Of a stretch of DNA of 16,704 bases, positions 1-6,952 are shown in pieces. Positions within the stretch are counted from its first letter, which is position 1. Each line of letters starts with the position of its first letter. The notes under the pieces were generated by a model, which searched no databases, was not told the DNA's origin, and saw only the letters and a program-made list of their open reading frames with translations. The position numbers were made by a program, and so were the translations under genes. The DNA comes from an uncultured Bacilli bacterium (GTDB lineage Bacteria > Bacillota_I > Bacilli_A > RF39 > UBA660): assembly GCA_944358325.1 (NCBI GenBank), contig CALVQV010000020.1, positions 1-16,704 on the forward strand. Direction: 5' to 3'.

Positions 1-61
1 TATGATATAATTGTTATAGAATAATTAAAATATAGAATATGATAAAATGAATTTACACAGT

Positions 62-110
62 TAAATTTACAGGGTCACACAGTAAATTTACAGGGTCTTA
101 CAGGGTCTTA
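62..110 (+). repeat. Direct-repeat array in the target-gene promoter. The 15-mer TAAATTTACAGGGTC occurs twice (62-76, 83-97; 21-bp period) and the 10-mer CAGGGTCTTA occurs twice in tandem (91-100, 101-110). Core unit is TTACAGGGTC.
   Basis: Exact repeats read directly from the sequence. A degenerate copy, AATTTACACAG, lies at 50-60. The array overlaps the predicted -35 and spacer. Confidence 0.8.
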
Positions 111-116
111 TATAAT
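87..116 (+). promoter_or_regulatory. Putative sigma-A-type promoter of the DGR target gene
   Basis: -35 TTTACA (87-92), 18-bp spacer, perfect -10 TATAAT (111-116). RBS AGGAG at 128-132 lies 7 nt before the ATG at 140. Confidence 0.45.
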
Positions 117-139
117 TTAGATAGAATAGGAGAGAAAAA

Positions 140-1819
140 ATGAAAGAAAAAGGATTCACGCTTATAGAATTACTAGCAGTCATCGTTATATTAGCAGTAA
201 TAGCTTTAATCGCAACACCACTAATTATGGGCGTTATTGATGAAGCCAAAGACGGAGCTAATAAAAGAAGTGTCCAAAGTATAAGAGATGGAGCAGAAAC
301 ATTTTTATTATCTAAAAAAACTTTAGATAGTAATTATACTTTCAATATGAATGATTATCAATTCAAAGGAAATCAATTTGGTAAAGGAACATCTGATGAA
401 AGAATTAATATTGTTTTTAATGATAAAGATGAAGCCAGTGTCGCAGTATATGAAAATAATAAATGTTATTATATCTTAGCAGGATCAAATGAAGTAAAAA
501 GTGAAACAGGCTTAGATAAACAACAATGTTTAGAAAAAGCAGGAGCAACTGAAATAGTAGAAGGAAATCCTCTACTACCACAAATAGAAGCTAACTTATG
601 TACAAGTGAAAAAACAACCGAATGTTATAAAACAGAAGGTAATGAATATATCTATACAGGAGCATATGGAACAGGTGGAGTAAACTGGTTATGGTATGGA
701 GGGCATCAATGGCGTATTATCAAAGTAGATAAAACAACTGGAAGATATACTTTAATTACATCATATCCTGCAACAGCAATTCAATGGCAAAGTAGTATAG
801 CAAATGGGCCATCATTAGAAGAGTCATATGTAGGAAATTGGTTAAATAATGTGTTTGTTGCATCATTACCAACTAATGTTCAATCAAAATTAGAAAATAT
901 GACATATACAAGAAAAGTATATGATGGAAGTAGTGTTGTAGAAGAAGAAATAAGTAATGTTAAAGTTAGACTTCTAACAGAAAATGAATATACAACTTAT
1001 GGCGGAGCAGATAGTTATTTAGATATAAAGGATTGGTGGTGGCTAGCAGATATATATACTTCGTCTCGCGTCCGTAGTGTGAACGACGGCGGCAATTTGA
1101 GCAGCGACAGGCCGTCGAGCGCGAATGGTGTGCGCGCCATTGTGGAAATATCTGATATCACCATCACAGAAGGTGATGGTACTCTTAGCGCGCCATATAT
1201 TGGAAACACAAGTAAAGCTACAAACTTATCAGATATTGCAGTCGGAGAATATATAAGTATTCCTAAAAGTGATGGTGGAACTTATTTAGCCCGTGTTGTT
1301 AAACGTGATCAAAATGGTACAAAAGTTATTCTAAATGGTTTATATAATACAAGTGCTTTTGGAAGTAATGCAACATTTTCAACAAGTAGTACAATTTATA
1401 CAGGAGCTTTAATAGGATTTAAAAATAGTTTAGATAGTAATTATTTTGATGGTACTAATCGTAATTTCAATATGACAACGTATGGAGATGGAGCAAATTA
1501 TGCAGATACAACAACTATGTTTACTGGCAATATCGGACTACCTAGCGTAGGGGAGATGTTTAGTGGAAATGATATAGATGTAACAACTAGTTCTAAAACA
1601 TTTGTAGATACAAGTAAAATATTAAATCCGACATTAAGTTCTTATTATTGGTTAATGAATGCCTATAGTTCGTCTAGCGTCCGTAATGTGAACAACTACG
1701 GCTACTTGAACAACAGCAGTCCGTCGTACACGGGTGGTGTGCGCGCCACTTGGTATATCTCTGATATCACCATTACCGGAGGTAATGGTACTCCTAGCGC
1801 CCCATATACCTTAAAATAG
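140..1819 (+). CDS. DGR target (variable) protein with a type IV pilin-like N-terminus and two tandem VR-bearing ligand-binding-type modules
   Basis: 559-aa ORF. The N-terminus MKEKG/FTLIELLAVIVILAVIALIA matches the prepilin cleavage/methylation motif (Gly-1, Phe+1, Glu+5, hydrophobic helix). Two paralogous modules (about aa 165-355 and 365-559) both end in WW(L)..SS.VR.VN..G.L....PS...GVRA...ISDITIT.G.GT.SAPY. VR1 covers aa 308-334 and VR2 covers aa 511-537. Confidence 0.9.
   Translation: MKEKGFTLIELLAVIVILAVIALIATPLIMGVIDEAKDGANKRSVQSIRDGAETFLLSKKTLDSNYTFNMNDYQFKGNQFGKGTSDERINIVFNDKDEASVAVYENNKCYYILAGSNEVKSETGLDKQQCLEKAGATEIVEGNPLLPQIEANLCTSEKTTECYKTEGNEYIYTGAYGTGGVNWLWYGGHQWRIIKVDKTTGRYTLITSYPATAIQWQSSIANGPSLEESYVGNWLNNVFVASLPTNVQSKLENMTYTRKVYDGSSVVEEEISNVKVRLLTENEYTTYGGADSYLDIKDWWWLADIYTSSRVRSVNDGGNLSSDRPSSANGVRAIVEISDITITEGDGTLSAPYIGNTSKATNLSDIAVGEYISIPKSDGGTYLARVVKRDQNGTKVILNGLYNTSAFGSNATFSTSSTIYTGALIGFKNSLDSNYFDGTNRNFNMTTYGDGANYADTTTMFTGNIGLPSVGEMFSGNDIDVTTSSKTFVDTSKILNPTLSSYYWLMNAYSSSSVRNVNNYGYLNNSSPSYTGGVRATWYISDITITGGNGTPSAPYTLK
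1062..1139 (+). repeat. DGR variable repeat 1 (VR1)
   Basis: 78-nt ungapped alignment to TR 1851-1928 with 13 mismatches. Eleven are at TR adenines (10 A->G, 1 A->C). Two are at non-adenines (TR c1885 vs t1096; TR t1900 vs g1111). It forms a GC-rich island in an AT-rich gene. Confidence 0.85.
1160..1180 (+). promoter_or_regulatory. Hairpin 20 nt downstream of VR1, a candidate DGR target-recognition (IMH-associated) stem-loop
   Basis: ACCATCAC (1160-1167) pairs with GTGATGGT (1173-1180) as an 8-bp perfect stem with loop AGAAG. The position is equivalent to the hairpin after VR2. Confidence 0.6.
1671..1748 (+). repeat. DGR variable repeat 2 (VR2)
   Basis: 78-nt ungapped alignment to TR, offset exactly 180 nt. 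There are 7 mismatches, all at TR adenines (TR 1857, 1877, 1883, 1896, 1907, 1913, 1914; 4 A->G, 3 A->T). Confidence 0.92.
1769..1789 (+). promoter_or_regulatory. Hairpin 20 nt downstream of VR2, a candidate DGR target-recognition stem-loop
   Basis: ACCATTACC (1769-1777) pairs with GGTAATGGT (1781-1789) as a 9-bp stem with loop GGA. Relative to the VR1 hairpin, a C:G pair is replaced by T:A through compensatory changes on both arms. Confidence 0.6.
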
Positions 1820-1850
1820 AGTAAGTATTGTAGGTGTAAGAACAAAAAAG

Positions 1851-1928
1851 CGTCTAACGTCCGTAATGTGAACAACAACGGCAACTTGAACAACAACAGT
1901 CCGTCGAACACGAATGGTGTGCGCGCCA
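1851..1928 (+). repeat. DGR template repeat (TR)
   Basis: Non-coding copy of the VRs, 31 nt after the target stop codon. It has 25 adenines in 78 nt, mostly as AAC/AAT codons in the VR reading frame (S N V R N V N N N G N L N N N S P S N T N G V R A). It ends in the GC-rich GGTGTGCGCGCC shared with both VRs. The 5' edge could extend to about 1841. Confidence 0.9.
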
Positions 1929-2101
1929 GAGCTCCTTGAAACTTAGAGTATATGAGTATTTTGTATATGTGAAGCCATGGAACAGTTCTTATTCCTGGGA
2001 ATATCCTAAAATTACATAAGTTTAATTAAGTTTTGGTAAGTGATGAAGAAGATTAATTAGTAATTCTTATGGGAAAACAGAAGAAATTTTTTCTTCTGTT
2101 T
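1851..2101 (+). ncRNA. Putative DGR RNA (TR plus a downstream spacer of about 145 nt), possibly the 3' UTR of the target mRNA
   Basis: No terminator lies between the target stop (1819) and the TR. The first intrinsic terminator is at 2075-2109. No credible ORF lies in 1929-2074. The 5' end of the RNA cannot be determined from sequence. Confidence 0.4.
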
Positions 2102-2109
2102 TTTAATTT
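2075..2109 (+). terminator. Rho-independent terminator after the TR and spacer
   Basis: AAACAGAAGAAA (2075-2086) pairs with TTTCTTCTGTTT (2090-2101). The core CAGAAGAA/TTCTTCTG stem is followed by a T-rich tract TTTTTAATTTT. Confidence 0.75.
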
Positions 2110-2156
2110 TTAGTATTTTTTTATGATAATTATGATGTTTTATGTTGACATTTTGC

Positions 2157-2183
2157 TTGACACGTGTGTGTGTGTGTTATTAT
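2157..2183 (+). promoter_or_regulatory. Putative promoter of the msl-avd-RT operon
   Basis: Perfect -35 TTGACA (2157-2162) and TG-extended -10 TGtTATTAT (2175-2183). The spacer is 15 bp and consists almost entirely of (GT)7. A second TTGACA lies at 2145-2150. Confidence 0.45.
2164..2177. repeat. (GT)7 dinucleotide microsatellite
   Basis: GTGTGTGTGTGTGT read directly from the sequence. It lies between the -35 and -10 elements upstream of msl. Confidence 0.95.
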
Positions 2184-2198
2184 TTGTTTGGTGATTAT

Positions 2199-2600
2199 AT
2201 GTTATATAAGGTATGGGAATGTTTGAAAGTAAGACATAGTTTTTTTGTTATTTTTATGAAGTATGGTAATTTTTATAAGGTTTATGGTGATGATGTTTTT
2301 ATTGTGTGGAAGATTACGGGGTATCGTGTTATTAATGGTGATCATATTGGTTTTCCTCTTAAGTCTTTAAATGTTGTTTTAAAAAGGTTAGAACTTTTAC
2401 ATGTTAGTTATATTGTTTATGATGGATGTGATGATTATTTGATGGTTGATGATGTTAATAATTGTTACATTAATGTTTTAAGTGAGTTTAAAGATTTATA
2501 TTTAAATGAAGATAGAATTAAAAAGATTGTGGAAAAGTTTGAATTTAAGGTTAGAGAGGATAAGGAAATGCTAGATTATTATGAAGAGTTATGGAAGTGA
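2199..2600 (+). CDS. MutS mismatch-binding domain I-like small protein (MSL-type DGR accessory protein)
   Basis: The ORF track gives 2142..2600. I prefer the ATG at 2199 (RBS GGTGA 2190-2194) because the upstream 19 codons overlap the promoter and GT tract. [33 protein letters not shown] aligns with the E. coli MutS N-terminus [59 protein letters not shown] aligns with [28 protein letters not shown]. The ORF overlaps avd by 20 nt. Confidence 0.7.
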   Translation: [133 protein letters not shown]

Positions 2601-2937
2601 TTTTGTTGTTATTAGGGAGTTTAAGAGTTTTATTTGTGTTGTTGAGGGTGAGTTTGATAATTGTCCTAAAAAGTGTTTATATTTAAAAGATAGTTTATTT
2701 GATATGTGTTATATGGTTTTAGAGGATATTTATGTGTGTAATATGGGGAATAATCGTTTGGTTTATATTAATCGTGTTATTGCTAGGTTAAGGATTATTG
2801 ATTTTATGCTTAAAAGATGTGTAGATATGGGGATTATTAGTTATAAACGTTTTTTATTTTTAGGAAATAAGTTAAATAGTGTAGTGAGAATGTGTTATGG
2901 GTGGTTAAAAAGTGAAAAGAGTAAACTTGAGGTATGA
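2581..2937 (+). CDS. avd: Avd-like accessory variability determinant (four-helix-bundle, 23S rRNA-IVS protein family)
   Basis: 118 aa, located directly upstream of the DGR RT and overlapping it by 26 nt. The helical pattern with a ..F..CPKK.. segment after helix 1 and a C-terminal MCYGWLKS matches the typical Avd layout (fPk.ek ... ml.gw.ks). The call rests on size, position and motifs only. Confidence 0.7.
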   Translation: MKSYGSDFVVIREFKSFICVVEGEFDNCPKKCLYLKDSLFDMCYMVLEDIYVCNMGNNRLVYINRVIARLRIIDFMLKRCVDMGIISYKRFLFLGNKLNSVVRMCYGWLKSEKSKLEV

Positions 2938-3883
2938 TGATGTTTTAAGTTATGAGAATCTTGAATTTATTTATTATATGCTTAGAAAAGGTGTTAAAAA
3001 TAAAGAAAAGTTAGATAAATTTGATTTATATTATAGTTCTAATATAAGTCATATTTATAGTTTGTTAAAAGAAAGAAGATATGAAGTTGGTTCTTATCAT
3101 CTTTTTTATATTTATGAACCAAAGAAAAGGCTTATTATGAGTCAGGGGATTGGTGATAAGATTGTTAATCATTTTGTTGCTTATTTCTATTTAATTCCTC
3201 TTCTTGACCCCTGTTTAATTAATAGTAATGTGGCAGTTAGGAAGAATATGGGAACTAGTTATGGTATTAAGTTATTAAAGAAATATTTTAGTAGTTTTAA
3301 AGGTGATTTTTATATTTTGAAGTGTGATATTAAGGGGTATTTTTATAATATTAATCATGATATTTTAAAAGTGTTGGTTGCAAGAAAGATTAAAGATAAA
3401 GATATTCTTAATTTAGTGTTTAAGATTATAGATAGTGTTGATAGTTATGGTATTGGAGGACTACCTATTGGTAATATGACTAGTCAGATTTTAGGTATAT
3501 ATTATTTAAATGGTTTAGACCACTATATTAAAGAAGTTTTAGGTATTAGGTGTTATATTAGGTATATGGATGATTTTATTCTTCTAGCTCGTGATAAATG
3601 TTATTTGAAAGAGTGTTTAAATAAGATTAAAGCGTATATTAGTGGATTAGGTTTAGAATTAAATTCTAAGACAATGATTAGTAGTAGTAAAAGTGGTGTT
3701 AATTTTTTGGGTTATCATTTTAGTTATGATAAGCATGTAGTTATTAAACCACATAATTATAATAAAAGAAAAATTAAACGAAAAATGAGGTTATATAAAG
3801 AAGGAAAGATAAGTTATAATAGGATTATTTGTTATAAAGGTTATTTTAGTTATTGTTCCCAAAGTAAGACATTTATAGTATAA
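2912..3883 (+). CDS. DGR-type reverse transcriptase
   Basis: 323 aa with a GTG start at 2912 and RBS GGTGG at 2900-2904. RT motifs present: EPKKRLIM, GDKIVNHF, YILKCDIKGYFYNI, LPIGNMTSQ (the DGR-specific IGxxxSQ signature), and RYMDDFILLA (YMDD catalytic box). No maturase, endonuclease or integrase extension. Confidence 0.92.
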   Translation: MKRVNLRYDDVLSYENLEFIYYMLRKGVKNKEKLDKFDLYYSSNISHIYSLLKERRYEVGSYHLFYIYEPKKRLIMSQGIGDKIVNHFVAYFYLIPLLDPCLINSNVAVRKNMGTSYGIKLLKKYFSSFKGDFYILKCDIKGYFYNINHDILKVLVARKIKDKDILNLVFKIIDSVDSYGIGGLPIGNMTSQILGIYYLNGLDHYIKEVLGIRCYIRYMDDFILLARDKCYLKECLNKIKAYISGLGLELNSKTMISSSKSGVNFLGYHFSYDKHVVIKPHNYNKRKIKRKMRLYKEGKISYNRIICYKGYFSYCSQSKTFIV

Positions 3884-3899
3884 TATTAGTGGTGATATT

Positions 3900-4844
3900 A
3901 TGAAAAAAAGAGTGGTTGTTTTAGGTGGTGGGACAGGAATGTCTACTTTATTACGTGGCTTAAAACAATTTCCTATTGATATAACAGCTGTTGTTAGTGT
4001 TTGTGATGATGGAAGAAGTACTGGAAGGTTAAGAGAGGAATTTAATATTCCAGCTGTTGGCGATATTCGTCAAGTTTTAGTAGCACTATCAGAAGTAGAA
4101 CCATTAGTAGAAAATCTTTTAAATTATCGTTTTAAGACGACTAGTGATTTAAATGGTCATACGGTTGGTAATTTACTTTTAACAGCTTTAAAAAATATTA
4201 ATGGAACGATGTCTGATGGGATTGAGTCTTTAGGTAAGATTCTTAATTTAAAAGGTAAAGTTTTACCATTAACAGAGGATAATGTTACTTTAGTAGGTTT
4301 AATGGAAGATGGTAGTAAAATAGAAGGTGAACACAATATTACAGAATCAGATTTAAGAGTTATGGAAGTTAGTTATAAAGATGCACCTATTGTTAATAAA
4401 GAGGTTATTAAAGAAATAAAGCGTGCGGATTTAATTATTTTAAGTATGGGTAGTTTATATACAAGTATTATGCCTAATTTAGTAGTTCCTGAAGTTGTTG
4501 AAGCGATTGAAAATAGTAAGGCTAAAATTATGTATGTTTGTAATATGATGACTCAACCAGGTGAAACTGATGAATATCGTGTTAGTGATCATATTAAAGC
4601 TTTAAATAAGCATTTAGGTAAACGTAGTATTGATATTGTTTTAGTTAATGATGGTGAAATACATCCAGAATTAATTAAAAGATATGCAACTTTAGAACAA
4701 AAAGATCCTGTTTTTTATGATATTGAAGAAGTTAATAAATTAGGAGTTAGAGTTATTGAAGATGATTTTGTTATTTTAGATAGAGAAATGATTCGTCATA
4801 ATTCAATGAAATTAGCTTTTCATATTTTTTCAAATTTAATGTAG
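3900..4844 (+). CDS. yvcK: Gluconeogenesis factor YvcK/GlmR family protein (UPF0052, CofD-like)
   Basis: N-terminal VVVLGGGTGMSTLLRGLK motif. 314 aa. Lies immediately upstream of whiA, as in other Firmicutes. Confidence 0.9.
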   Translation: MKKRVVVLGGGTGMSTLLRGLKQFPIDITAVVSVCDDGRSTGRLREEFNIPAVGDIRQVLVALSEVEPLVENLLNYRFKTTSDLNGHTVGNLLLTALKNINGTMSDGIESLGKILNLKGKVLPLTEDNVTLVGLMEDGSKIEGEHNITESDLRVMEVSYKDAPIVNKEVIKEIKRADLIILSMGSLYTSIMPNLVVPEVVEAIENSKAKIMYVCNMMTQPGETDEYRVSDHIKALNKHLGKRSIDIVLVNDGEIHPELIKRYATLEQKDPVFYDIEEVNKLGVRVIEDDFVILDREMIRHNSMKLAFHIFSNLM

Positions 4845-4857
4845 AATGAGGTGATTT

Positions 4858-5769
4858 ATGTCATTTACAGGTAGTGTTAAAGAAGAAGTTATTAATCTTA
4901 ATTCAAGTGATTTAGAGTCTCGTGCTTGTTTAAGTGCAATAATTCATAATGTTGGTAGTATTACAAATGATAGTATTAAAGTAGTTACGGAAAATAGTTT
5001 ACTTGCTAAATATATTGATACACTACTTAGAGATATATATGATATAACGCCTAAAATTATTGTTCGTAAAGGCTATAATTTTAATAAAAATTATTTATAT
5101 ATTATTGAATTTATTAATAAATTAGATTTAGTTATTAAAGATTTATCTTTAGATGACAATATTCCTAAGGAATATTTATATGATGATAGTGAATTATTAC
5201 GTTCTTATTTAAGAGGTATTTTCTTGGCTGTTGGAAGTATTAATGATCCAAAGAAGTCAAGATATCATTTAGAGTTCTTAGTAGATAGTAAGAAGTATGC
5301 TTATTTTATTATGGATAAGCTTAATAGTTTTAATTTAAATAGTAAAGTTTTAAAAAGAGAAACTAAGTATATGATTTATGTTAAAGAGTCAGAAAAGATT
5401 AGTGATTTTTTAAGACTTATAGGGGCTTCTAAAGCCGTTATGTACTATGAAGATATACGTATATATCGTGATCATGTTAATATGACTAATCGTCTTAATA
5501 ATTGTGAACAAGCGAATGTTGAAAAAACAATTAATGCCTCTAATGAACAAATAAAAGAAATAGAATTATTAAAAGAAAAAGATGTATATGACTTGTTAGA
5601 TGATAAAGTTAAGGAAGTAGCAGTTTACAGACTTAAATATCCTGATGTTTCTTTAACAGAGTTAAGTGAAATAATTTCGGTAGAAACAGGTAATAAAATC
5701 ACTAAATCAGGTCTTCATCATCGTATGCGTAAAATAAAAGAAATGGCTAATAAAGTAAGAAATATGTAG
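4858..5769 (+). CDS. whiA: DNA-binding protein WhiA
   Basis: 303 aa. N-terminus MSFTGSVKEE..., LAGLIDADG-like middle region (YLRGIFLAVGSINDP) and C-terminal HTH (TKSGLHHRMRKI). Conserved yvcK-whiA synteny. Confidence 0.9.
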   Translation: MSFTGSVKEEVINLNSSDLESRACLSAIIHNVGSITNDSIKVVTENSLLAKYIDTLLRDIYDITPKIIVRKGYNFNKNYLYIIEFINKLDLVIKDLSLDDNIPKEYLYDDSELLRSYLRGIFLAVGSINDPKKSRYHLEFLVDSKKYAYFIMDKLNSFNLNSKVLKRETKYMIYVKESEKISDFLRLIGASKAVMYYEDIRIYRDHVNMTNRLNNCEQANVEKTINASNEQIKEIELLKEKDVYDLLDDKVKEVAVYRLKYPDVSLTELSEIISVETGNKITKSGLHHRMRKIKEMANKVRNM

Positions 5770-5782
5770 AAAGGGTGATAGC

Positions 5783-6952
5783 ATGAAATGTATTTTAATG
5801 AATAAAAATATTGAAGTATTAGTTGCTGAGTACGATCAAGAAATTAAAGTTTTTAGTAAGATATATGAAATTAAAAATATTAAATATGCACCATTCCAAT
5901 TAGAAAATGCTTATTATAAAAAAGAAACATTTCGTGCTTCATTATCTGAATGGTTTGTTGGGAGAGGTATTCCATCATGGCGTGATGATTTAGATATTTT
6001 ATTATCTAAATTAAATATATCTACACCTAAAGAATTATTAGATAAAGCTTTTGGTTTGTCATTATCTGATCAATATTGGTTAAAGCCATATAATAGTAAT
6101 ATAAAATATGATGATATAAATTTTTTTGATCATGATTTTCAAGGCTCAGAATTTACTAATATAACATTTTCTTCTAGTAATACAAGTTCTAACAAAGTTA
6201 GTTTAATTTCCCCTAATAATACAACAGATGGGCGATTAAAAAAAACGTGGATTATTGAAAATAAGACAAGATATTTATTAAAGGGTGGTTATAAAAATGA
6301 AGTTATGCAACCATTTAATGAAGTATTAGCAACTATGATATGTAAACGTATGGGGTTTAAACATGTTCCTTATGAGCTTGCTATTGTAAATGATAAAGTA
6401 GTATCTAAATGTCCATGTTTTATTACAAAAGATACAGAATTAATAAGTGCTTATCAAATTCTTCATAATAATTGTCATAAAAATAATGCTTATATTGAAT
6501 ATATTAATATTTTAGAAGAACATGGTATTAAAAATGCTAGAGAAAATTTAGAAGATATGTTTATATTAGATTATCTAATGTTAAATGAAGATAGACATCT
6601 AGGTAATTTTGGTATAATTAGAAATGTTGAAAATTTAAAGTGGCTTGAAACAGCTCCCATTTTTGATACTGGTCAATCATTAAATATTTTAGATTATAAT
6701 GATGAAGAATTACTTATTAATGGTGCAGGAAGATTTTTCTATGAAAGTAATAATTTTGATTATTTACTTACTAAAATAAAAGATATCAAAAGATATGATT
6801 TAAATAAGTTAGATGGGTTATGTGATGAATTTGATAGTTTATTACATAAATATAGTAGTATTACACATATGACTGATAGAAGAATTGATAAAATATGTAC
6901 TTTATTAATGAGTCGTATTAACAAATTAAAAAGGTATATCAAAAGCGTTTAG
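5783..6952 (+). CDS. HipA-like serine/threonine kinase domain protein (orphan, no adjacent HipB/HTH partner)
   Basis: 389 aa. The HipA_C-type catalytic region LMLNEDRHLGNFGII (compare N.DDH.kN) is followed by APIFDTGQSL (compare APlYD). N-terminal SLSDQYWLKP motif. Confidence 0.6.
   Translation: MKCILMNKNIEVLVAEYDQEIKVFSKIYEIKNIKYAPFQLENAYYKKETFRASLSEWFVGRGIPSWRDDLDILLSKLNISTPKELLDKAFGLSLSDQYWLKPYNSNIKYDDINFFDHDFQGSEFTNITFSSSNTSSNKVSLISPNNTTDGRLKKTWIIENKTRYLLKGGYKNEVMQPFNEVLATMICKRMGFKHVPYELAIVNDKVVSKCPCFITKDTELISAYQILHNNCHKNNAYIEYINILEEHGIKNARENLEDMFILDYLMLNEDRHLGNFGIIRNVENLKWLETAPIFDTGQSLNILDYNDEELLINGAGRFFYESNNFDYLLTKIKDIKRYDLNKLDGLCDEFDSLLHKYSSITHMTDRRIDKICTLLMSRINKLKRYIKSV

Follow-up and report, generated by a model that had tools for sequence, protein, structure and literature searches.

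In-frame hairpins downstream of both variable repeats in a Bacilli diversity-generating retroelement: candidate DNA signals for cDNA integration

A diversity-generating retroelement with two variable repeats in one target gene

We analyzed a 16,704-nt stretch of DNA from an uncultured Bacilli bacterium (positions 1 to 16,704 of contig CALVQV010000020.1, assembly GCA_944358325.1; hereafter, the window), which contains a complete diversity-generating retroelement (DGR) consisting of a target gene with two variable repeats (VRs), a template repeat (TR), a MutS-like open reading frame (ORF), an avd-like gene and the gene for a reverse transcriptase (RT). The subject of this article is a pair of perfect hairpins that lie within the reading frame of the target gene, one downstream of each VR, and that are likely to mark these repeats as recipients of the complementary DNA (cDNA) made by the RT. 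The features of the locus are collected in Table 1.

Table 1. Features of the DGR locus, with positions counted along the window
Feature	Coordinates	Strand	Basis
DGR target gene, 559 aa	140..1819	+	ORF list; Pfam N_methyl and DUF6273; two VR-bearing modules
VR1, internal variable repeat	1062..1139	+	78-nt repeat family shared with TR
GC-rich 3' core of VR1, GGTGTGCGCGCCA, same in TR; counterpart of the (GC)14 element	1127..1139	+	alignment
20-nt VR-specific spacer after VR1, encodes IVEISDI, absent from TR	1140..1159	+	alignment
Hairpin 1, ACCATCAC-AGAAG-GTGATGGT, 8 bp, 5-nt loop, encodes T-I-T-E-G-D-G	1160..1180	+	sequence, fold
VR2, C-terminal variable repeat	1671..1748	+	differences from TR all at TR adenines
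GC-rich 3' core of VR2, GGTGTGCGCGCCA	1736..1748	+	alignment
20-nt VR-specific spacer after VR2, encodes TWYISDI	1749..1768	+	alignment
Hairpin 2, ACCATTACC-GGA-GGTAATGGT, 9 bp, 3-nt loop, encodes T-I-T-G-G-N-G	1769..1789	+	sequence, fold
TR with 25 adenines; GC core as in the VRs at its end (1916-1928)	1851..1928	+	78-nt repeat
TR 3' spacer	1929..2071	+	compared part, to about 2014, identical to related contig L102
Intrinsic-terminator-like hairpin and T-run after TR	2072..2104	+	terminator scan
MutS-like (MSL-type) accessory ORF, 152 aa	2142..2600	+	weak Pfam MutS_I match, E = 3.9e-4
avd-like accessory gene	2581..2937	+	Pfam bAvd, E = 1.2e-3, under curated cut-off; position and size fit
DGR reverse transcriptase	2912..3883	+	Pfam RVT_1, E = 2.6e-16

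The RT, the translation of which includes YMDD as well as IGNMTSQ, the signature motif of DGR RTs, shows the highest similarity in the PDB to the 328-aa RT 8ub7_A (E = 1.7e-26), with group II intron RTs ranking behind. The domain matches of the two accessory ORFs are weak: that of the MutS-like ORF, which is located between the TR and avd, is narrowly above the Pfam cut-off, and a PDB sequence search with this ORF gave no match. The sizes and order of these ORFs and the overlap with the RT gene agree with the avd plus MutS-like (MSL) architecture that Wu et al. (2018, PMC5758913) reported, and the element in the window is probably a DGR of this architecture; the MSL class of accessory genes has been reported for 16 DGRs (PMC5758913). 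The target protein has a type IV pilin-like methylation motif at its N-terminus (Pfam N_methyl) and also matches the DUF6273 domain.

The three 78-nt repeats align in register, and the downstream copy (1851-1928) is the template because the differences of the VRs from it sit at its adenines, 11 of 13 for VR1 and 7 of 7 for VR2. The VRs also vary between close relatives at positions encoded by TR adenines, as is characteristic of DGRs: among P0001, P0002 and P0003 (87-88% identical proteins), P0001 and P0002 differ at many residues in both VRs, and their tails are alike except for one Ser/Thr change after VR1. The homology of the repeats stops at GGTGTGCGCGCC+A (1127-1139, 1736-1748 and 1916-1928), beyond which the TR and the VRs are unrelated in the alignment. 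The core GGTGTGCGCGCCA is identical in VR1, VR2 and the TR, with the last A-to-N difference 2 nt upstream of this core. No hairpin is present in the 62 nt that directly follow the TR, and the fold of 1916-1990 is less structured than that of shuffled sequences (minimum free energy -1.5, z +1.8). The TR 3' spacer shows no significant fold as single-stranded DNA (ssDNA); approximately 86 nt of it were compared with L102 (6342-6420) and are identical, although the L102 target protein is only 76% identical. Because of this identity, the spacer, at the end of which lies the strong terminator-like hairpin (2072-2104), is probably the structured RNA that recruits and primes the RT.

Hairpins at the same distance from both variable repeats

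Both hairpins in the target gene are perfect and in frame, and both start exactly 20 nt past the A shared by the repeats (21 nt past GCC). They differ by a compensatory change in the stem: the C:G pair at 1165:1175 of hairpin 1 corresponds to a T:A pair at 1774:1784 of hairpin 2, the change in the 5' arm (ATC to ATT) being synonymous and that in the 3' arm (GAT to AAT) replacing Asp with Asn. When folded as ssDNA, the 31-nt segments with hairpins 1 and 2 yielded -7.6 kcal/mol (z -3.8) and -7.4 kcal/mol (z -4.2), respectively; none of 200 shuffles folded as well, and either strand folds. The stems have 4 of 8 and 4 of 9 GC pairs, and both loops are purine-rich, with the loop of hairpin 2 reading CGGAG if the closing pair is open. 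Identical copies of hairpin 2 were found in L104, L109 and L008. At the protein level, the two modules of the target are alike only over the VR and its tail (58 aa, 53% identity), with no similarity detected elsewhere; the nucleotide identity between the modules is 67-87% in 1050-1200 vs 10-57% upstream, and the two tails share an identical 14-mer, TCTGATATCACCAT.

The initial annotation, made from the sequence alone, had pointed to the end of the TR/VR homology at the GC-rich core, the hairpin exactly 20 nt after each VR, the compensatory change with its Asp-to-Asn replacement, the excess similarity of the VR-plus-tail region over the rest of the modules, and the lack of both the 20-nt segment and the hairpin in the TR, and all these observations were borne out by alignment and folding. 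It had also described the 20-nt segment as a conserved counterpart of the initiation of mutagenic homing (IMH) element. The position and geometry of the segment support this comparison, with the reservations that the two spacers are identical at only 13 of 20 positions, mostly in the 3' half (TCTGATATC), and that the TR has no IMH*, the corresponding copy of the IMH.

The window holds 11 distinct perfect hairpins with at least 8 bp and a loop of 3-6 nt (an automated count gave 13, with two hairpins counted in two registers each; approximately 4.2 are expected on that count). A scan of the window against Rfam at gathering thresholds gave no match. A terminator role of the two hairpins was considered and rejected: no T-run follows either of them, and the sole terminator-like site in 1-4000 is the one at 2072-2104. 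The VR1 spacer and hairpin are bracketed by a direct repeat, GCGCGCCAT (1132-1140 and 1189-1197), in which the self-complementary GCGCGC pairs in an 84-nt fold. The resulting long-range GCGCGC/GCGCGC helix around hairpin 1 is not conserved in the close relatives L105 and L107 and was dropped as a candidate, and the direct repeat itself is probably a chance occurrence.

Covariation in the stem and its association with template-like repeats

At E <= 1e-5, 2188 homologs of the target protein were identified, most of which contain two hypervariable VRs on a conserved skeleton, SSS.VR.V...G.L...SP....GVRA; several paralogs are present per genome. From these more than 2000 homologous genes, we assembled a DNA set of 63 distinct VR-like sites, drawn from genome contigs (L001-L009), metagenome contigs (L081-L101) and look-ups of exact proteins (L102-L113); a scan of viral contigs for relatives found none. 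No TR was found within 3-4 kb of the wider-family homologs (L001-L009 and L081-L101), and therefore the DGR must act in trans on several paralogs; remote DGR targets have been documented (PMC5758913). For the same reason, we used the composition of the VR as a proxy for ongoing homing: TR-derived VRs have 50-65% GC in genomes of about 30% GC, and VR-like stretches without the TR skeleton have 28-49% GC. Sites with a VR GC content of at least 0.5 are referred to below as GC-rich (n = 32) and the others as AT-rich (n = 31).

In terms of codons, the hairpin consists of T-[I/F]-T, a loop codon and G-[D/N/E/K]-G. The central codon pair occurs in four states in the family, ATC/GAT, ATT/AAT, TTC/GAA and TTT/AAA, that is, the synonymous third base of the Ile or Phe codon tracks the non-synonymous first base of the partner codon. 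Among the GC-rich VRs, the central pair is C:G in 13, T:A in 14, T.G in 1, C.A in 2 and other in 2 (Fisher 2e-5); among the AT-rich VRs, it is C:G in 5, T:A in 6 and T.G in 10, with the rest unpaired (Fisher 0.62). The mean number of Watson-Crick pairs, out of 9, is 7.06 for the GC-rich vs 4.42 for the AT-rich sites (Mann-Whitney 2.7e-6; Spearman rho 0.61), and a perfect hairpin of at least 6 bp that starts no more than 35 nt from the VR end is present at 23 of 32 and 5 of 31 sites, respectively. In the decayed, AT-rich VRs, the amino acid motif is often kept while the pairing is lost.

Covariation across homologous targets, for which the initial annotation had proposed a test, is detectable. 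In the alignment of the GC-rich set (A4), 83.6% of the cells are paired, and the central pair is CG in 9 and UA in 8 sequences, with no GU; the covariation score of 0.320 (0.220+-0.023 in shuffles) was reached by 0 of 500 shuffles, and shifting the partner by 1-3 columns reduced the pairing to 32-54%. RNAalifold returned the same helix as the sole consistent structure in the 66-nt tail. In the alignment of the AT-rich set (A5), the covariation did not differ from that in shuffles, 78 of 500 of which reached the observed score. Uncorrelated changes that break the pairing, which the annotation had named as evidence against a functional stem, are not the pattern found in TR-like VRs, where the paired positions covary in four codon-pair states and central wobble is absent from A4. 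As judged by these comparisons, it is the structure of the stem rather than its sequence that is conserved.

The codon pairs were also predicted from the protein sequence alone, for 9 sites that belong to five additional loci and for another site in L104. Of these 10 predictions, 8 were correct, and the two misses are single-step intermediates, ATT/GAT (T.G) in L111 and TTC/AAA (C.A) in L112. Parsimony on neighbor-joining trees, which were built from the 450 nt preceding each VR, gave at least 2 switches between C:G and T:A among the I-type tails and up to 4 among the F-type tails. Because these trees are rough, the number of independent double substitutions that can safely be stated is at least 3-4. 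The decayed sites are scattered among intact sites on the trees.

L102 and its paralog from the same sample, L104, illustrate the association. The TR and 3' spacer of L102 are nearly identical to those in the window (96.8% over 95 nt, with the following spacer identical); in the adjacent target, VR2 departs from the TR at 53 of its 78 positions, and VR1, with 40% GC, has no TR match. Both L102 hairpins are broken (ACC ATT ATC/GAA/GGT GAC GGT and GCT ATA ACA/GGT/GGT AGT GGA), the first of them still encoding TI.EGDGT. The VRs of L104 are TR-like and its hairpins are perfect. A transposase gene (PF00872; L102 3697-4452) is located immediately upstream of the L102 target gene with the decayed VRs.

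Position of the hairpin across the family

The hairpin is located 21 nt after the GVRA codon in VR1-type tails and at 24 nt in 'LKSNLTFTGGKGT' tails. In the commonest VR2-type tail ('LKSGTSALTFTGGEGT'), it is found at 33 nt together with an additional, invariant 8-bp hairpin, CTGAAGTC-AGG-GACTTCAG, which encodes LKSGTSA and lies 9 nt after the C-terminal VR. The latter hairpin (L086 4638-4656, and the same position in L001, L082, L087, L095 and L110-L113) is built of very rare codons (CTG 1% of Leu, AAG 11%, GGG 8%) and is present in most of the wider family, not in the clade of the window, where the VR2-type tail has been replaced by one of the VR1 type. Across the GC-rich VRs, the stem-loop typically begins 9-24 nt past the VR end (offsets 9, 21 and 24).

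Codon choice in and around the stem

To separate pairing from coding, we calculated the exact probability of pairing given the amino acids, using the codon usage of the 14 other ORFs of the window, in which ACC accounts for 6% of Thr and ATC for 6.5% of Ile codons, third-position C being very rare. For the VR1 hairpin, TIT/GDG would give 8 or more contiguous Watson-Crick pairs with a probability of 1.3e-3, and for the VR2 hairpin, TIT/GNG would give 9 pairs with a probability of 7.3e-4. Under synonymous resampling, the tails are more stable than expected at 17 of 22 GC-rich vs 6 of 28 AT-rich sites (Spearman rho -0.58, p = 1e-5). The outer Thr codon is ACC in 21 of 27 GC-rich and 6 of 18 AT-rich VRs, with a family background of 7%.

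Rare codons also occur beside the stem (alignment A6): tail codon 9 is the Ser codon TCT in 14 of 16 sequences, and codons 20-21 include the Leu codons CTT/CTA; in the window, these positions are 1151-1153 and 1184-1189.

Other features of the locus and of a related element

The 16.7-kb window has a GC content of 28%, with all substantial genes in its ORF list on the + strand, and the DGR is flanked by cofD/yvcK-like and whiA genes, which are among the evidence that places it in a low-GC Bacillota lineage of the gut. An AlphaFold model of the target protein (predicted local distance difference test, pLDDT, 76) has a single significant fold match in the PDB, the IgA peptidase of Thomasclavelia ramosa (9qa6, E = 3.3e-7), whose N-terminal domain is annotated as DUF6273 (PMC12402451). 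A 21-nt repeat in tandem, TAAATTTACAGGGTC(A/T)(C/T)ACAG (62-103), overlaps the best promoter-like site upstream of the target gene (-35 TTTACA at 87, -10 TATAAT ending at 116) and may be an operator.

The accessory/RT block (2100-3900) has an unusual composition, with C on the sense strand amounting to 3.5% in the MutS-like ORF, 2.2% in avd (0% in third positions) and 5.5% in the RT gene; its GC skew is +0.5 to +0.84, with T in excess of A, and the neighboring + strand genes have a skew of 0.14-0.47, with A roughly equal to T. In a related metagenome-assembled genome, we identified a different DGR (L024 3989-7962; RT 34% identical), the target of which has a nearly identical pilin-like N-terminus and a C-terminal VR of a different class; this VR (5517-5632; TR 5884-5999) ends at the stop codon and is followed directly by a short hairpin, ATCGC-GAA-GCGAT.

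Proposed function and alternative explanations

Perfect hairpins follow both VRs in the window, their structure is under selection at the nucleotide level, and in the family they are linked to active-looking VRs. Considering these observations, we regard it as likely that the hairpins act in cis, as DNA elements by which each VR is marked for receipt of DGR cDNA, and represent a coding-embedded version of the (GC)14/IMH/stem-loop signal known from the DGR in the Bordetella phage. A part in cDNA integration is inferred by analogy with that phage and from the association with active-looking VRs; the correlation of hairpin integrity with a TR-like composition of the VR bears on retrohoming efficiency indirectly.

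Under this scenario, the TR RNA (1851-1928 and the 3' spacer) would be reverse-transcribed by the RT/Avd complex with adenine-specific errors, and the antisense cDNA would pair with the VR sense strand, beginning at the common core GGTGTGCGCGCCA. The stem-loop 20 nt downstream would form while the DNA is transiently single-stranded or supercoiled and could make the site efficient for integration, for example, by keeping the region open or stalling lagging-strand synthesis just 3' of the VR. On the lagging-strand template, the hairpin might delay gap filling or, alternatively, it might extrude as a cruciform, in either case leaving the GC core and the VR accessible to the cDNA. The location of all genes on the + strand and the positive GC skew of that strand suggest co-orientation with replication, in which case the VR sense strand would be the lagging-strand template. 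In E. coli, this orientation is the most efficient one, and the stem-loop has been proposed to prolong the open state of the lagging-strand template (PMC12875486). Because the TR possesses the GC core and lacks the spacer and the hairpin, information would flow only from the TR to the VRs, and because the element lies inside the reading frame, pairing would dictate both codons (ACC, ATC) and residue pairs (Ile with Asp/Asn, Phe with Glu/Lys).

The alternative that survives best, though an unlikely one, is that the hairpin acts in the target mRNA, as a ribosome pause, stability element or processing site unrelated to cDNA integration. An element of this kind should persist with the gene, yet pairing is lost where the VR is no longer TR-like while the ORF and the motif are kept; furthermore, the position of the hairpin is tied to the VR end (offsets of 9, 21 and 24 nt), and no T-run follows it. 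The hairpin is transcribed and in frame, its RNA fold is equally good in principle, the helix is recovered by RNAalifold, and some T.G (G.U) pairs are tolerated at the outer and loop-closing positions, all of which would suit an mRNA element; however, central wobble is found at none of the A4 sites and at 1 of the 32 pooled GC-rich sites vs 9 of 27 decayed ones, which fits a duplex, a cruciform or a need for pairing on both strands better. The near-absence of central wobble from active sites, although compatible with a both-strand requirement, is not decisive.

We consider it quite improbable that the conservation of the tails results from gene conversion, among paralogous targets or between VR1 and VR2, with the palindrome as a passenger. 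Such conversion could draw on the several paralogs in the genomes and would account for the 14-mer shared by the two tails and for the VR1-type tail of VR2 in the clade of the window, where most of the family has a different VR2 tail, but it predicts identity and not compensatory double changes, of which there are four pair states with at least 3-4 independent switches. It also leaves unexplained the enrichment of rare codons specifically in the 5' arm and the loss of pairing in decayed VRs amid active relatives on the tree.

Least probable of all, and largely refuted, is the possibility, raised in part in the initial annotation, that the palindrome is a by-product of the conserved peptide T-I-T-x-G-D/N-G-T, with Ile-Asp/Asn and Phe-Glu/Lys covarying via side-chain contact: even though 105 homologs keep the motif in their protein sequences (I-D 55, I-N 21, F-E 70, with no I-E, I-K or F-D), Thr (ACN) and Gly (GGN) codons are intrinsically complementary at two of three positions and the switch between A:T and T:A involves non-synonymous sites on both sides, a protein-only explanation is rejected by the exact codon null (P ~1e-3 per hairpin), by synonymous resampling and by decayed sites that encode the same residues without pairing (L102 5512 ATT/GAC, L082 1143 ATA/GAT and L002 5642 TTT/GAA), and within the central covarying pair the C/T position is synonymous. 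The AlphaFold model shows TITE as a strand and GDGT as a coil, with no symmetric beta-hairpin pairing I342 with D346 (pLDDT ~80), so that coupling through such a beta-hairpin is unsupported, although this is weak evidence from a moderately confident model without a contact list.

Several observations weigh against the hairpins being homing signals. Some GC-rich VRs have a weak hairpin or none (L105 4197, L107 4546, L081 4620, L093 1704 and L111 1285), and a perfect hairpin accompanies a VR with a GC content of only 0.44 (L008 4982). The unusual codons that flank the stem (TCT at codon 9 and CTT/CTA at codon 20) are not explained by pairing; they may reflect sequence-level recognition or simply ancestry. 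TRs are known for the window's own clade only, activity is represented by a proxy (VR GC >= 0.5 or TR-likeness), and the sequences are related, such that the p-values overstate their independence. The mismatch types do not separate action at the DNA level from action at the RNA level. Finally, the stems described here, with 44-50% GC, are not GC-rich, and their loops of 5 nt (AGAAG) and 3 nt (GGA) are not 4-nt GRNA loops; in both respects they differ from the stems of the Bordetella phage BPP-1 type, in which structure and not sequence matters and which have 7-10 bp, high GC content and 4-nt GRNA loops (Guo et al. 2011, PMC3240598). Therefore, a different mode of recognition is possible.

If the hairpins are nevertheless cis-acting homing signals, a more far-reaching proposal can be put forward, which we regard as possible rather than probable. 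Given that the GC core is identical in the donor and the recipients, the in-frame hairpin might be the only license for a module, among many pilin-like paralogs, to receive cDNA, its loss by mutation might fossilize the VR, and DNA pairing might dictate which residue pairs are allowed (Ile-Asp/Asn and Phe-Glu/Lys). If so, the family would be a natural record, on the scale of a whole family, of DNA secondary structure gating targeted hypermutation, and would suggest that a downstream repeat is more frequent in DGRs than the published 34%, which came from a screen restricted to GC-rich, non-coding repeats.

Of the steps of mutagenic retrohoming, the one least understood is still how DGR cDNA locates its target and gets into it, and the requirement for a stem-loop rests mainly on mutagenesis of one phage element. 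The family described here offers many natural replicates, namely, thousands of paralogs from gut bacteria, some apparently active and some decayed, in which compensatory changes preserve the stem only as long as the VR continues to be rewritten. It thus provides a comparative handle on the features of the stem that matter, namely, Watson-Crick pairing, placement at 9-24 nt, and a tolerance for loops of 3-5 nt and a moderate GC content, and suggests practical rules for predicting live DGR targets among remote VR-like sequences. The family is, in addition, a clear case of a protein sequence into which a constraint of DNA structure has been written.

Comparison with known systems

A general parallel is found in group IIC introns that target terminator stem-loops (discussed in PMC3240598), where an RT system is likewise cued by DNA stem-loop structure rather than sequence; unlike these introns, the DGR involves no intron, ribozyme or insertion, and a homologous segment is replaced.

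Among DGRs, a putative target hairpin in coding DNA downstream of the VR has a precedent in the archaeal (Nanoarchaeota) protein AvpA, for which a hairpin/cruciform was described in the coding sequence of the C-terminal extension (Handa et al. 2016, PMC5006420). The AvpA hairpin encodes approximately 5 residues predicted to be disordered and was judged by the authors to be unconstrained by the protein (PMC5006420), whereas the hairpins described here encode a conserved, structured motif (the TIT strand followed by G.GT), where the effect of pairing on the choice of codons and amino acids is visible.

In the survey of Wu et al. (PMC5758913), high-confidence GC-rich repeats were found downstream of the IMH in 34% of DGRs. 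The authors noted that, if the IMH equals IMH*, recognition must extend downstream, and that the IMH of an internal VR must coexist with coding constraint. The DGR in the window resembles the MSL-containing 'architecture D' of the survey in its putative avd and MutS-like accessory genes and, like a case in the survey, has a GC core that is identical in VR and TR (PMC5758913). It differs in that the hairpins are in frame and of moderate GC content, whereas the survey scored only high-confidence GC-rich repeats (PMC5758913), and a screen of that type would probably miss such hairpins.

The closest comparison is with BPP-1, in which homing requires (GC)14, the 21-bp IMH and a DNA stem-loop (Naorem et al. 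2017, PMC5703328); DGR hairpins lie 4-34 bp from the VR, with no repeat at the TR (PMC3240598). The stem-loop is important and not absolutely essential, and matters for efficiency in E. coli as well (PMC12875486). The similarity to the Bordetella phage geometry noted in the initial annotation, with a GC-rich element, about 21 nt, a stem-loop and none after the TR (PMC5703328, PMC3240598), holds in each part: a GC-rich element common to VR and TR forms the 3' end of each VR, an inverted repeat of 8-9 bp follows after 20-21 nt, and no inverted repeat follows the TR. In both systems, furthermore, the structure of the stem takes precedence over its sequence, as indicated here by natural covariation and in BPP-1 by the StMut/StRev mutants, and the loops are purine-rich on the sense strand. 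Unlike in BPP-1, the hairpins described here are inside an ORF, a single gene holds two recipients, with further recipients elsewhere in related genomes, and the homology with the TR stops at the GC core, such that the TR contains no near-identical IMH* to match the 20-nt segment. Lacking such a copy, the segment does not qualify as an IMH as strictly understood for BPP-1. On the best reading of these comparisons, the element would work like the BPP-1 target signal without strictly matching the BPP-1 consensus.

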